From Camelus dromedarius (lineage: Eukaryota), in contig NC_087436.1 of assembly GCF_036321535.1 (NCBI RefSeq), positions 26,228,001 to 26,292,000 of the forward strand: a DNA stretch of 64,000 nucleotides. The letters run 5' to 3'. The notes beneath the pieces were generated by a model, which was not told where the DNA came from, made no database searches, and saw only the letters and a list, made by a program, of their open reading frames with translations. Below, one piece after another: positions 12,301 through 20,283 of the stretch. How positions within the stretch are numbered: the stretch's first letter is position 1; each line of letters opens with the position of its first letter. Position numbers and translations under genes: made by a program.

Positions 12301-13813
12301 CTATTTCTTGTTTTAAATTCCATTGATTTCTGCTATAATTCTTATTATTTATTTTCTTATGCCTACTTTGGATTTAATTTGTTATTTTTTGTTTGTTTCT
12401 TAATATGGAAACTTACATTATTGATTTTAGATCGTCTTTTCTAATATGCATTTGATGCTATAAATTTCCCTCTAAGTACTGCTTTTGCTGTATCCTACAA
12501 TTTTTCATAAGCTATTTTTTAATTTTAATTTAGGAAAAAATATTTTAAAATTTCTCCCTAGATTTCTTCTTTGACCCATGTGTTATTTAGAAGTGTGTTT
12601 AATCTCCACGTATTTTGGGATTTTCCAGTTATCTATCTATTACTGACTGACTTCAAGTTAAATTTCATTGTGAATTAAGAGTAGATGCTTTATGATTTCT
12701 GTTCTTTTAAACTTTTTAATGTGTTTAGATAGAGGATGTATTTCAGGTTGGTGAATGTTCATATGAGCTTGAAAAGGATGTGTATGCTGCTGTTGTTAGA
12801 AGATTTAGTCTATAAATGTCATTTATATCCAGTTTATTGATGGTGTTGTTGAGTTCAGCTATGTCCTTACTGATATTCTGCTTGCTCTATCTGTCCATTT
12901 CTGAGAGAGAGAGATTTGAAATATCCAACTATGGTAGTAGATTCATCTATTTTCCTTGTAGTTTTATCAGTTTGTCTCTCATAGTCTGATGCTCTCTTGT
13001 TAGGCATATACACGTTAAGGATTGTAATTTGTGGAAAATTTACCTCTTTATCATTACATAATGCCCTTCTTTTTCCCTGATAACTTTCCTTGCTTTGAAA
13101 TCTGCTCCATTTGAAATTAATATAGCTACTCATGCTTTTTTGATTAGTATAACTATGATATATTTTTTCTTCAGCCATTTACTTCTAATCTGTGTGTGTC
13201 TTTATATTTAAAATAAGTTAATTGTAGCCATCGGATAATTGGGTCTTGTTTTGTAATTTGTTCCAATAATCTTAATCTTTTAATTGGTGCATTTGGACCA
13301 TTGATGTTCAAAGTGATCCTTGATATATTTGGACTCAAATCTACCATATTTGTTACTGTATTCTGTTTAATGCTCTCCTTCTTTGTTCCTGTTTTCGTCT
13401 TCCACTTTTTTTCTGCCTTTGTAGTTTCAAATGAGCGTTTTTTGAGTCCATTTTTCCCTTTTTCAGCATATAGATATACTTCTCTCTTTTTTTTTTTACT
13501 AGTTTTATGGTTGTCTTAGGGTAAACATAAATATTTTAATAGACATTTACATCTGATAAGTCCACTTTCAAATGACAGTATACCACTTTATGGGTAGCAT
13601 GAGTATCTTATAATAACAAAATAATTCTAATTCCTTCTTTTCATCCTATGTATCATTGCTGTTATTCTTTTTACTTGTATATAAGTACACATAAGCATAT
13701 ATGTATACACATATATGTACATGATATATGTATAAGCATGTATAATCAAATACATTGTTAGTATCACTTTCAAACAAATATTATCTTATTTTCCTTGTCT
13801 CTAAAGAACTTTT
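9310..13813 (-). mobile_element. Old LINE-1 (L1MC1-like), 3' portion: 3'UTR and decayed ORF2
   Basis: L1MC1-type 3' end (ttttagagtagtactaggttcaca...gtacagagatttcccatatacc). Minus-strand ORF fragments match L1 ORF2: MANKHIK...REMKIKT, ILFYRFNAILIK, EN-domain ITILNVYMPNKRAS. Confidence 0.9.
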
Positions 13814-15789
13814 CCCCCCAACACTTCTCCACTTTAAGGTTAACCAATGTGGTATTTATGTATCTAAACATTTGCTGTAAGTTTTCAGTGATGTTTAAAT
13901 TCTGAATTATCTTTCCATAAAGATAGTGGCATATTGGTTTGTATTTTATAGAAACCATTTATCTTTAGGTCACAAATAGGAATGTATATAATTTGCCAGT
14001 GTTACAAAGTTGATTCGAACCCTCAGCTAATCTCTTTCTTGAGAAATTGCAACCACTTGTTTAATCTTTAATGAAAATAGAGACTAAAAACAATTGCTTA
14101 AACATATCACTGTGTAAGATTCCAGTGACTAAAAAATCCCTGAAAGAGCAGTAAACCGTGATTATTGAAAAGCTCAGAACACTAGCAAGGTAAAGATTTA
14201 ACAGAAGGCCACAAACTGTGTTTTCCTAAGAGGAGCTAGGAACTATATATGCCGTTTAATAATGTTTGAAATGGCCTTGTCTAGTGTTAGTGTTGCACAG
14301 AAACCCCAAGTCACTTCTTCCTGGTCTGTTATTTTGGATAAGCTTCCACTATCATAGCATGGCCCTGCACGCCAGCTGCATAGGCAGCCACTAAGCCATA
14401 CTGGCCTGCTTCCTTCCATCATCTGTTGGCAGCTATCATGACTAGCCAGCAGCCAGTGGCTCCATACAGGTGTCCCAGGGATAATGATCCACCCCAGTTG
14501 TTAAACTTACTCAAAGGATACAATCCAACCTTGTTTTTTTCTATCCATGTAGTTTTGCACAAACCAATCAGAATCCACAGCTTTACTATTAGCCAAAATC
14601 TGACCTAAGACAGCTTCATGAAATACAAGAGCTTCAATATCATTCATTGTTAATCCTTCCTTTTCTAGCACTTTTAGAGTAGCATATGTTGGTCTGAGTA
14701 GAAGTTGATCTTTTGAATCTGGAGACAGATACACAAAATCCCTCAAATATGACTTTGACTTATATAACCCATGGTCAGAGCTTTTTCCTTTGCTATAATC
14801 AGCATTGCAGATGCAACATCAGTCAGAGAAGAAGAATTTGTAGCTGTCACTGTGCTGTAGGGCTTGATGAATGCAGGTTTTAGTTTGACCGTTTGTTCTA
14901 GGAAGGACAAATGCCACTATTTGATATTTGTATCTTTTCCTGCTTTGAAGACATACAGCATAAGAAAGGAGTCCTTCATCCTATGCCTTCTTGGCCAGGT
15001 TGTGCAAGATCAGTGTACACTCATTGTGTTCCAGTCGAGAAATAGCAAGGCAGAAGCAAGTCAGTCTGCAGAGTGATGCATAGTCTCAGTGGTGGAGAAC
15101 TTGGCCACTGTAGGGTGCTCAGATGATAGGAAATTCAATCTAAATTTAGAGATTAAAGATAGTCACTGACCTAGAGTCTTAGACTTATTGAGATTAAGGT
15201 TGATATTCCTTGAATGATAAATAGGGATGTAGGATGTTTACTCTACACCACCTGCTACGACCACATCTTACTGGCCAGAGGTAATCAAGCCAACACTCGT
15301 GGTCCTGGCTTGGTTTGCAGAAATGCAAGCCATGGTGACAATGTGAGCAAGAGTCTTGTCAGAAAGGTCAGCTCATAGGGCAGCCTTTAGCCACATTGCT
15401 TGTTTTCGTTTCCTGTACAACTGTGCCCAAAATTATATAATAAGCAACTTCCCTTGGGACATTGGTCTGATGCAGCAAATCCAGAAGTGCTTCTCTAGCT
15501 GAATCATGTGGCATCTGGTCTTTATATAAAGTACCTGACAGCAAAAAGGGAATGTGAATACCACCACCACATTCCTTATACAAGGTTTAGCCAAAGTCTT
15601 CTTGATTTGGTTTGGGTGGGTAGGGCAGCTGGTAGCTGGTAGGAACAGCTCAGAAGTCTTACAGAAAACCTGAGGGCCCATTTTGACATACTGGCAAGAT
15701 TTTCAAAGTCAAGATGGAAGTCATCTTGAAATCATCCCACCTTAGCTCACATCTGTTGAGGCTTCTGCTGTGGGCAAGGCTTGGTCCCA

Positions 15790-16153
15790 AGTGAAAAGGT
15801 CAGAGGGACCAAGAGATGTGTCCAGCCTAGAAAGGATCCCTCACACTGGCCCCCTGGGCTCCAAAGGTGTGGCTGGCTTCTCAGCTATCCACCAGCCTTA
15901 TGATTAGACAACCAGTCATTTGCCCCCTCCTTGATGGGCCTCTTTCCTCCCAGCAGACAAAGAGTTATTTCTGCTCCTTTAGCTACAGGGAGGGGCAGTG
16001 TTAAGAGGCCTGCAGCAACTCAGCATGGTGGGTGGAGTGGGGTTAATCAGGAAGTATGTTGGGGGCTTGGCTGGGGCCAGGCTGCAGGAAATAAAGTCCT
16101 CTGTTCCCTCAGCCCAACTTGAAGTGGCCTGCTTTCTTCGTCTTCAGCTCAGG
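15790..16153. promoter_or_regulatory. Retrocopied, CpG-decayed copy of the HADHA/HADHB bidirectional promoter
   Basis: GC-rich segment between the HADHB 5'UTR (minus) and the HADHA ATG (plus), inside the TSDs. GC-box-like runs appear eroded by CpG>TpG (ggtgggtggagtgggg). HADHA and HADHB are known to be head-to-head. Confidence 0.8.
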
Positions 16154-16210
16154 ATGGTGGCCTCCCTGGCGACAGGCAGCTTCACTTCCTCCAGGATGCT
16201 CAGTACTCAG
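16154..16210 (+). pseudogene. HADHA: Copy of HADHA exon 1 coding part (mitochondrial presequence start) followed by its splice donor
   Basis: tcttcagctcaggATGGTGGCCTCCCTGGCGACAGGCAGC...CAGGATGCTCAGTACTCAG|gtgagc resembles recalled HADHA exon 1 (tcttcagctcaagATGGTGGCCTGCCGGGCG...CCGAG|gtgag; MVACRAIG...). About 10 nt shorter than the recalled exon. Confidence 0.85.
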
Positions 16211-16295
16211 GTGAGCCTGGCTAAGAGTGCTCTAGAGCCCTGGGAAGATCTCCCGAGGATGAGGCAGGAATGGCCTCTGAGCCTCATCTCCCCCG

Positions 16296-17255
16296 CTGAA
16301 GAACTTTTTAAAACATTTCTTGCAAAACAAGTCTCTTGGCAGCAAGTTACCTCAATTTTTATTTATCTGAGAAAGTATATTTCTCCTTTCCTTTTGAAGG
16401 AAAATTTCACAGGGTACAGACTTCTAGGTTGGTGCGGGGTTTTTCTCTCAACATTTTAATTATTTCACTCTACTTTCTTCTTGCATGGTTTCTGAGGAGA
16501 AGTGGGAGGCAATTTTTATTTTTGTTTCTCTATAAGTAAGATATTTTTTCCTCTCTGGTTTCTTTCAGGACTTTTTTTCTTTCCCTTTAATTTTCTGTAG
16601 TTTGAAAAAGACAATGCCTACGTGTAAGGGTTGTTTGTTTGTTTTCCACTTATCCTACTTACTTTCCTCTGAAATTCTTGGATCTATGGTTTGGTGTCAA
16701 TATTAATTTGGGGAAATTCTCAGTCATAATTGTTTCTTCTGTTCCTTTCTCTCTTTTTGGGCTTTAGTTAACTAATTTCTCCAGAGGGCAGGCCTTCTTA
16801 AGAACAGAGTGCTCTGGAGTATTTCAGAATGGTTCATTTTCCCCTACTCCTGCCAGAAGCCCAAGGGGATGTTTCTCTAATATTTACTCTGAGAATTTGG
16901 TCAAGTTACCTGAAGTAAACCTTATAATGTTGTGGGGACCCCATGTATGACTGTGTTCCCCTTGAGTTTTAAACTCTCAGACTTCTCCACACTGAGCCTC
17001 CAGCAATTCTTCAGGTTTCTTACCCACATCCCTTGCAGTGGTGCTTTCTGCTTGGGATCTCTGCTCGGGCCAGCCAGTACTCCCTGTATTCTCCTGTCTA
17101 TCTCCAACCTTGGGAGTGGTGGTTTGTTCTGTGTCCTTCCCTCTCTTAGGGATCCACAAAGGGTAGTTAATTTTTCAATCTGTTCAGTTTTTTACTTGTT
17201 GTTAGGACAGTGTGGTGACTTTTAAGATCCTTACATCAGACCTAGAAACTGGACC
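16296..17255 (-). mobile_element. Old LINE-1 (L1MC1-like), 5' portion: ORF1 remnant and 5'UTR, continuing the element at 9310-13813
   Basis: L1 sequence resumes colinearly across the TSD (ttccttgtctctaaagaactttt / aacatttcttgcaaaacaagtc...tctgagaaagt), then gives L1M-type 5' end text ending ...ccttacatcagacctagaaactgga. Confidence 0.8.
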
Positions 17256-18056: not shown

Positions 18057-18449
18057 TTCTTTTTTTTTTTAAATTGAAGTATAGTCAGTTATAGTGTGTC
18101 AATTTCTGGTTACAGCACAATGTCCCAGTTACACATATACATACATATATTCATTTTCATATTCTTTTTCATTAAATGTTATTGCCAGGTATTGAACATA
18201 GTTCCCTGTGCTATACAGAATAAACTTTTTAAAAAACCTATTTTTATATGTAGTGGCTAACATTTATAAATCTCAGACTCCCAAATTTATCCCTTCCCAT
18301 CCCTTTCCCTGATAACCGTAAGATTGCTTACTATGTCTGTGAGTCTGTTTCTGTTTTGCAGATGAGTTCATATTGTCTGTTTTTTCTTTTCTTTTCTTTT
18401 CTTTTCTTTTCTTTTCTTTTCTTTTCTTTTCTTTTCTTTTCTTTTCTTT

Positions 18450-18525
<76 letters not shown>

Positions 18526-20283
18526 TCCTTCTTCCTTCCTTCCTTCCTTCCTTCCTTCCTTCCTTCCATCTTTCTTTCTTTCTTTTTTGAGATTCTACAT
18601 ATGAGTGATATCATGCGGTATTTTTCTTTCTCTTTCTGGCTTACTTCACTTAGAATGATGATCTCTGGGTCCATCCGTGTTGCTGCAAATGGCATTATTT
18701 TCTTCTTTTTTATGGCTGAGTAGTATTCCATTTTATAAATATCCCACAACTTCTTTATCCAGTCATCTGTCAATGGACATTTAGGTTGCTTCCGTTTTTT
18801 GGCTATTGTATATAGTGCTGCCATGAACATTGGGGTACATGTATCTTTTCAAATCAGAGTTCCCTATGGATATATACCCAGAAGAAATGGGATTGCTGTA
18901 TCATACGGTAGTTCTATTTTAAATATTTTGAGGAATTGCCATACTGTTTTCCATAATGGCTGCCCCAAACTACATTCCCACCAGCAGAATAGTAGGGTTC
19001 CCTTTTCTCCATACCCTCTCCAGCATTTATCATTCATGGACTTTTGAATGATGGCCATTCTGACTGGTGTAAAATGATACCTCATTGTAGTTTTGATTTG
19101 CATTTCTCTGACAGTTAGTGATATTGAGCATTTTTTCATGTGCCTATTGGCCATTTGAATGTCTTCACTGGAGGATTGCTTGTTTAAGTCCTCTGCCGAT
19201 TTCTGGATTGGGTTGTTTGTTTACTTTTGTTATTAAGTTGTATGAATTATTTATATATTCTGGAAATTAAGCCTTTGTCTGTCACATCATTTGCAAATAT
19301 TTTCTCCTATTCTGTAGGTTGTTGTTTTGTTTTGCTTATGGTTTCCTTTGCTGTGAAAAAGCTTATAAGTTTAATTAGATGCCATTTGTTTATTTTTGCT
19401 TTCCTTTCTATTGCCTAGGTAGACTCTCTTAGGAGAACATTGCTAAGATTATGTCAGAGAATGTTTTGCCTATATTTTCTTCTAGATTTATCATGTCCTG
19501 TCTTATATTTAAATCTTTAAGCCATTTTGAGTTTATTTTTGTGTATGGAGTGAGGGAATGTGCTATCTTCATTGATTTACATGCTGCTATCCAGTTTCCC
19601 AACACCACTTGCTGAAGAGACTGTTTTTTTTTTTTTCATTGTGTATTCTTATCTTCTTTGTCAAAGGTTAATTGACTAAGTCTGTGGGTTTATTTCTGGG
19701 CTCTCTATTCTGTTCCACTGATCTATATGTGTATTTTTATGCCAAGACCACACTCTTTTGATTACTGGAGCTCTGTAGTATTGTCTGAAGTCTGAGAGGG
19801 TTATTCCTCCAGCTTTGTTCTTTTTTTTTCAATATTGCTTTGGAAATTCTGGGTCTTTTGTGATTCCATATAAATTTTAGGATTGTTTGTTCTAGTTCTG
19901 GGTAATTTGATAGGAATCACATTTAATCTGTAGATTGCCTTGGGCAGTATGGCCATTTTAATGATATTGATTCTTCCAATCCAAGAGTGTGGGGTATCTT
20001 TCCATTTCTTTAAGTAATGCTATATATAGAAAACCCTAAAAGCTCCATGCGAAAACTATTAGAGCTGATAAAATAATTTGGCAAGGTAGCAGGATACAAG
20101 ATTAACATACAGAAATCAGTTGCATTTCTTTACACTAACAATGAATTAACAGGAAAAGAAAATAAAGAAACAATTCCTTTTAAAATTGCATCCAAAACAA
20201 TAAAATACTTAGGAATAAATCTGATCAAAGAGGTGAAAGACTTATACATGGAAAACTACAAAACGTTAATTAAGGAAATTAAA
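18057..20283 (-). mobile_element. Younger 5'-truncated LINE-1 with 5' inversion (20016-20283 on plus strand)
   Basis: Poly-T tail at ~18051-18070. ORF2 C-terminal peptides on minus ([10 protein letters not shown]...[31 protein letters not shown]). Plus-strand block encodes the immediately upstream ORF2 segment (YIENPK...YKTLIKEIK). TSD caccccttc(t/c)ttc(t/c)tt at 18041-18056 and 20284-20299. Confidence 0.93.
18380..18588. repeat. Compound pyrimidine microsatellite (TTTTC)n-(TTTC)n-(TTCC)n within the L1 3' region
   Basis: Directly visible tandem arrays. Confidence 0.98.

Follow-up and report, generated by a model that had tools for sequence, protein, structure and literature searches.

Some retrocopies are known to have brought the promoter of their source gene with them. 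Okamura and Nakai (2008; PMC2386082) reported that, of 29 functional retrogene pairs, over half carry a retrotransposed core promoter, and gave dispersed start sites as the cause, CpG islands being present in 27 of the 29 source genes. According to Carelli et al. (2016; PMC4772013) approximately 3% of expressed retrocopies inherited the parental promoter by way of an upstream-promoter transcript; the promoter-inheriting retrocopies are listed in Supplemental Table S4 of that paper, which could name comparable cases. It is upstream starts in CpG-island promoters that allow a core promoter to be retrotransposed (PMC2386082, PMC4772013). HADHA and HADHB in man lie head-to-head and share a promoter of 350-390 bp (PMC4442397, citing Orii et al. 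1999; PMC8974095, for a 390-bp fragment). Here we describe a retrocopy of HADHB in a 64,000-nt stretch of Camelus dromedarius DNA (the window), which belongs to contig C1 of a 2.3-Gb mammalian assembly; coordinates are those of the window unless another contig is named. The retrocopy continues upstream of its own gene into sequence corresponding to HADHA.

The element is very probably a HADHB processed pseudogene mobilized by LINE-1 (long interspersed nuclear element 1, L1), copied in a single insertion from one HADHB-sense RNA that crossed the shared promoter. It resembles the promoter-inheriting retrocopies (PMC2386082, PMC4772013) in that a spliced RNA with an upstream start would have brought a CpG-island promoter along with the cDNA. 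Unlike the cases in those surveys, which are expressed or functional, the present copy is dead and its promoter decayed; the captured piece differs from theirs too, as it comprises a complete two-way promoter together with the first exon of the partner gene and the start of its intron (PMC2386082, PMC4772013). The word "bidirectional" does not occur in PMC2386082, and in the passages of PMC4772013 that were read it denotes promoters recruited at the new site and not carried along. We regard the mechanism, by analogy, as the upstream-start promoter inheritance already described, unusual without being unique. What is particular to the present case, as read from its sequence, is that the whole two-way promoter and the first exon of the partner with its donor were captured, yet the copy died. 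No description of a comparable HADHB retrocopy was found in the open-access full-text literature, supplements aside, and the available portions of the HADHA/HADHB bidirectional-promoter literature yielded nothing on a start site inside HADHA.

The window contains a single intronless copy of HADHB at 13814-16298 on the minus strand. When its cDNA part (13814-15760, minus) was compared with the genome there were 16 matches: the copy itself, 14 on contig C15 and one, of 86 bp, on contig C22. The 14 exon-sized matches on C15 lie between 46056146 and 46089169 and are 78-89% identical. With the short exon 3 and exon 1, which were recovered by a more sensitive BLAST, all 16 parental exons are present in the copy, in order and without introns, and acceptor- and donor-like sites (AG/GT-type) flank every one of them in the parent. 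The parental HADHB thus recognized has 16 exons spread over about 36 kb of C15; the retrocopy is on contig C1. Parental exon 8, when translated, matches the beta subunit of the human trifunctional enzyme [5.1e-31, 6dv2_A], and a protein-level search of the genome with this exon gave two matches, the parent and the present copy. Neither the DNA search nor the exon-8 protein search of the assembly revealed a second HADHB retrocopy sharing the 5' extension. The present copy is apparently the only retrocopy of HADHB that the assembly contains, with the counts from the genome search being lower bounds. A segmental duplication at the DNA level was ruled out because the copy is spliced.

The ATG of the retrocopy is at 15722-15724 and the stop codon at 14329-14331; about 510 nt of 3' untranslated region (UTR) come after it. 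All parts of the cDNA lie on the minus strand. The 3'UTR (13820-14328), which is part of parental exon 16, aligns over 493 columns with the sequence beginning at C15:46056146 at 84.8% identity. The coding region (14329-15724), consisting of exons 2-16 joined without introns and bearing frameshifts and stops, is covered by exon-by-exon high-scoring segment pairs (HSPs). The 5'UTR part of exon 2 (15725-15732) reads ATTTCAAG before the ATG where the parent, after its acceptor, has ATTTCAGA before the ATG.

In being intronless, on another chromosome, flanked by a target-site duplication (TSD) at a TTTT/AA-type target, frameshifted, interrupted by stops and neutrally diverged, the copy is like any ordinary L1-mediated processed pseudogene. 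It is unlike one in that its poly(A) tail is gone and that it extends 400-570 nt past the point where such copies usually end on the 5' side, taking in sequence of the promoter and of the neighbouring gene. The 571 nt upstream of the HADHB ATG (15725-16295) gave two matches in the genome search, the stretch itself and C15:46092482-46092773 (67% identity, 1.1e-13). The latter is the only non-self match in the 2.3-Gb genome and lies upstream of parental HADHB exon 2, at a distance of 3.1 kb. Window positions 15746-16298 and positions 1282-1836 of the parental locus (L002) form one local alignment of 580 columns, with 373 matches, 52 gap columns and 70.6% identity in the ungapped columns. The parental span so aligned runs from the HADHB exon-1 donor through exon 1 and a GC-rich intergenic CpG island to HADHA exon 1, and then to position +88 of HADHA intron 1. 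The exon on the opposite strand of the parent starts with MVASRVIGSLGRFTASRTLCCP and ends in a GT donor, and 88 nt of its intron are included.

The same parts can be followed in the retrocopy. HADHB exon 1, the shared HADHA/HADHB promoter and the HADHA 5'UTR (antisense) correspond to 15751-16153 on the minus strand, colinear with the parent and depleted in CpG. On the plus strand the putative coding part of HADHA exon 1 occupies 16154-16210, with an ATG and 18 codons, and is shorter by 10 nt than its 67-nt parental counterpart; the first 85-88 nt of HADHA intron 1 follow at 16211-16298, beginning with the donor GTGAG and ending in three nucleotides (CTG) which are common to the target site. 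An earlier note on this DNA, made from the letters alone, had proposed a fully spliced HADHB coding sequence and 3'UTR with about 570 bp upstream of the ATG, ending in an opposite-strand HADHA exon-1-like part with its gtgag donor and about 85 nt of intron. The 16 exons in order without introns, the 571 nt, the ATG at 16154, the donor at 16211 and the 85-88 nt agree with it in each respect. The contiguous parental alignment through HADHA exon 1 into intron 1 which it had anticipated was found in the C15 locus of this genome, and 15790-16295, on whose alignment to the parental promoter and HADHA exon 1 the proposal had been staked beforehand, lies inside that one alignment.

The neighbouring gene on the opposite strand is, judged by homology, HADHA. 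Two 3HCDH_N exons lie 29-35 kb beyond the parental promoter, on the same strand as HADHA exon 1 (two of the seven genome matches being on C15), and one such exon, 29 kb downstream, matches trifunctional enzyme subunit alpha [2.6e-31, 6dv2_G].

The entire insert is bracketed by one duplication. The 13-mers ctaaagaactttt (13801-13813) and ctgaagaactttt (16296-16308) are identical at 12 of 13 positions and are the sole matches to the motif, at up to two substitutions, within 13000-17000. A strict duplication, AAGAACTTTT, is shared by 13804-13813 and 16299-16308 with 10/10 identity. The single mismatch of the 13-mer falls in the CTG at 16296-16298. Because the parental sequence also has CTG there, these nucleotides may belong to the cDNA, and we read them as 2-3 nt of microhomology between cDNA and target. 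The left copy of the duplication is part of the host L1 sequence and the right copy is followed by TAAAAC, from which a pre-insertion site of ...GAACTTTT(T)/AAAAC can be reconstructed. The consensus target of the L1 endonuclease is TTTT/AA, and the pre-insertion site is of this type.

Both flanks match the same L1 copies and so represent one old L1, the sense strand of which is the minus strand of the window. The N-terminus (endonuclease) of its open reading frame 2 (ORF2) is found at 13174-13515, minus [LINE-1 ORF2 protein, 1.3e-8], and the retrocopy lies upstream of it in the host L1, in the same orientation. The genome contains 846 candidate relatives of the right flank, 40 of which were scored (72-77% identity). 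Twenty L1 copies were fetched, the sole criterion being a match that starts no later than the fourth base of the right flank. In 19 of the 20 the motif CTAAAGAACTT(C/T)T occurs once, with the left-flank tattttccttctct before it and the right-flank TTTAACATTTCTTGC directly after it, and these uninterrupted paralogs serve, in our comparison, as the empty site. The chance of such a pair is 40/4^13, or about 6e-7, per position pair, and about 1e-4 if a slack of +/-6 nt is allowed at each end; a chance origin of the duplication was rejected on the empty-site control. The 13-bp duplication with 12/13 identity and the L1-endonuclease-type TTTT/AAAA target which had been claimed for this insertion both stand, the former by virtue of the empty site in 19 of 20 paralogs and the latter by the pre-insertion sequence ...CTTTT(T)/AAAAC.

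At the same L1 position the twentieth paralog (L024; G000:C12:5869859-5870509, at about 335-470) has a tRNA-like short interspersed nuclear element (SINE) bearing a long poly(A). This SINE has a duplication of its own, beginning AAGAAC, and is unrelated to the HADHB retrocopy. Since it occupies the same position, the L1 sequence GAACTTTT/TAAAA appears to be a target that the endonuclease has used repeatedly. Some 60-120 nt immediately to the left of the insertion site (about 13680-13796), present in most of the 20 paralogs, are missing from the host L1, and a TA/CA-rich low-complexity stretch is found in it at 13680-13750; both features seem unrelated to the retrocopy.

The retrocopy has decayed throughout its length. 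Over exons 2-15 it agrees with the parent at 84.6% of 1364 columns, with 10 indel events and a Kimura two-parameter distance (K2P) of 0.175. Continuous reading of the coding region over 14328-15722, which is offset by one base from the frame of the ATG, meets 36 stops; three stops fall within the exon-8 match, and the coding region of the retrocopy has no open frame longer than 82 codons. K2P at codon positions 1/2/3 is 0.162/0.144/0.191, as taken from the nine of 14 exon HSPs with a unique open parental frame, and is 0.173 in the 3'UTR; the codon-position values give no sign of constraint at the protein level. The retrocopy is dead: its frame is lost, its drift has been neutral, and it does not qualify as a functional retrogene.

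In the promoter part K2P is 0.328 at non-CpG sites and 0.382 overall. The non-CpG value is about twice that of a single lineage, which is to be expected if both copies drift here, and the cDNA part and the promoter part would then be of one age. The captured sequence is the homologue of the HADHA/HADHB bidirectional promoter and lies, like it, between the two first exons; unlike the parental promoter, to which it is 70.6% identical, it no longer has the character of a CpG island. The parental promoter is such an island (63% G+C, 39 CpG, observed/expected ratio 0.71), and the copy has four CpG and a ratio of 0.09. Of the parental CpGs 18 have become TG or CA, two are kept, two fall in gaps and 17 are otherwise changed. 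The captured promoter is, by these measures, now a decayed, CpG-poor relic.

The host L1 differs from its paralogs by 23-28%. On a star tree this would amount to a drift of about 0.15 per copy, an estimate similar to the drift of the retrocopy itself. Neutral rates are of the order of 1.5-2.2e-9 per site per year; with these and a single-lineage divergence of about 0.15 the insertion would, very roughly, be 70-100 million years old, and the copy would be expected in species well outside the genus.

We propose the following course of events. In the ancestral germline, which is where it would have had to occur in order to be inherited, a HADHB-sense RNA would have started within or upstream of the first 88 or so nt of HADHA intron 1 and run antisense over HADHA exon 1, then across the CpG-island promoter common to both genes, and so into HADHB exon 1. 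All 15 HADHB introns would have been spliced out of it, and it would have received a poly(A) tail. The L1 endonuclease would then have nicked a TTTT/AAAA site within an older L1 copy on another chromosome, and target-primed reverse transcription and integration would have left a TSD of 10-13 bp. The retrocopy thus arrived with a complete two-way promoter sequence. It was not kept: it has drifted neutrally, lost its frame and lost nearly all of its promoter CpGs, as is expected after methylation.

Since the aligned block is colinear as far as HADHA intron 1, the template would be a spliced HADHB-sense RNA begun at or upstream of that position. The earlier note had such a template begin inside HADHA intron 1; the spliced, promoter-crossing RNA stands, and the exact start is reduced to a lower bound, because a 5' truncation with CTG microhomology is equally possible. 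It had also held that the copy arrived with a two-way promoter. Arrival of that sequence by retrotransposition is evident from the colinear alignment; what is there today is the relic just described, with its observed/expected ratio of 0.09.

Several observations weigh against our interpretation. The 5' end of the copy may be a truncation point, so that it would set only a bound on the start of the template. A search with the ECH_1 family gave no HADHA exon on C15 (none of 15 matches), and the 22-residue peptide of HADHA exon 1 has no match among solved structures, so it is by its position and by its similarity to the retrocopy that this exon is identified. At the joint of HADHB exons 1 and 2 there are 18 nt (15733-15750, minus) which match neither exon. 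Their first nucleotides, GTGAG, align on the parental donor GTAAG, for which reason an alternative downstream donor may have been used; the parent has a GT at +17 past the exon-1 donor, and the template was possibly spliced from a donor 16-18 nt downstream of the usual one. Finally, no recognizable poly(A) tail separates the end of homology from the duplication. Homology to the last parental exon ends at 13820, and the expected poly(A) position is occupied by six consecutive G (13814-13819 on the minus strand, CCCCCC on the plus strand). The first four A of the duplication could be the only remnant of the tail, which, with a divergence of about 15%, may plausibly have been lost through decay or deletion.

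As to the 3' end itself, the parent has AGAGAA at the position corresponding to the G6 run. A canonical AATAAA was not seen in the last 60 or so nt of parental HADHB before the end of homology (L004, about 1501-1560; from C15:46056146), and the retrocopy has ATAAAT where the parental 3' end reads ATATAG.

The matter of the 5' end bears on how long the template was. It might have been a much longer HADHB-sense RNA, for instance an antisense transcript from deeper in HADHA, truncated at its 5' end, and in that event position +88 would say nothing about the start. Microhomology of 2-3 nt is associated with truncated L1-type 5' junctions, and the CTG at 16296-16298, matching both parent and target, is of this kind; the 18 odd nucleotides at the exon 1/2 joint likewise hint at an unusual isoform. 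Against this, the dispersed start sites of CpG-island promoters are a simple nearby source (PMC2386082), and the present data do not separate a truncation from a true start. A longer template is accordingly a possibility to be kept in mind, and in our opinion the less likely one. It is scarcely credible, by comparison, that two events were involved, that is, an ordinary 5'-complete HADHB retrocopy to which a separate insertion or a template switch added the promoter/HADHA piece. Chimeric retrocopies from template switching by reverse transcriptase do exist, and they share with the present copy the extra non-mRNA sequence at the 5' end; moreover the divergence of the promoter part exceeds that of the cDNA part (K2P 0.33 vs 0.17). 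Such divergence is what would be expected of two neutrally drifting copies with CpG decay in addition. Unlike that of template-switch chimeras, the extra sequence here is colinear with the genome beside the parental gene, which is why no template switch is needed. The alignment runs unbroken from HADHB exon 1 into the promoter in parental order and orientation, and a single duplication brackets the whole insert, for which the L1 paralogs provide one empty site. A second event would have had to hit exactly the right base, and it is because genomic order, orientation and exact junction would all need to be reproduced that we rate this explanation so low.

A further alternative is that the transposed promoter is, or was, active at its new site and drives transcripts, for example a non-coding RNA with its start in the copied HADHA exon 1. 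The captured piece takes in the equivalent of the 350-390-bp human HADHA/HADHB promoter, which by itself drives balanced two-way expression of transgenes (PMC8974095, PMC4442397), and the GT donor that follows this exon copy is intact. On the other side stand the CpG ratio of 0.09 with two of 39 parental CpGs kept, the L1-rich surroundings, and seven long open frames of the window without a Pfam match above the curated cut-off. Divergence is also about equal at all codon positions, so that no period of protein-level selection took place. Taken together, activity of the promoter seems very unlikely to us. Hardly better are the prospects of the most far-reaching version of our proposal, in which the locus would be a dated fossil: head-to-head promoter, partner exon 1 and donor moved as a unit, recording an ancestral germline HADHB start in HADHA intron 1, convergent with HADHA, and in its boldest form a promoter once or still active as a new divergent unit in an L1-rich desert. 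We think this quite improbable as a whole.

With regard to the parental promoter, the mostly intergenic/intronic stretch L039:3800-4600 had 24 sequencing runs listed for it, 20 of them with at least half of the sampled words. Seven of these 20 are RNA on record, with word shares of 0.51-0.80. DNA carry-over, pre-mRNA, related species or promoter-crossing transcripts could all account for them, and nothing is drawn from them here.

Elsewhere in the window, fragments resembling a second L1 are found on the minus strand at 18254-19220. A long purine/pyrimidine microsatellite lies between them, appearing in open frames as FSFLFF.../KERKKE... The pieces themselves are presumably C-termini of L1 ORF2; for the two pieces of this region that were tested, Pfam gave no family above the cut-off.

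In annotation, neither the HADHA exon-1-like stretch nor the promoter-like stretch described here should be taken for a gene start. As the principle has been published before, the value of the locus would be that of an illustration and possibly a dating marker, with no new mechanism. As an illustration it is a clean, fully bracketed example of a promoter, here a whole two-way one, travelling with a retrocopy, together with a piece of the neighbouring gene. It is also a counter-example to the rescue of retrocopies by an arriving promoter, as the present copy died anyway. Lastly, it would preserve a record of germline HADHB-sense transcription which once crossed the shared promoter and overlapped the first exon of HADHA.

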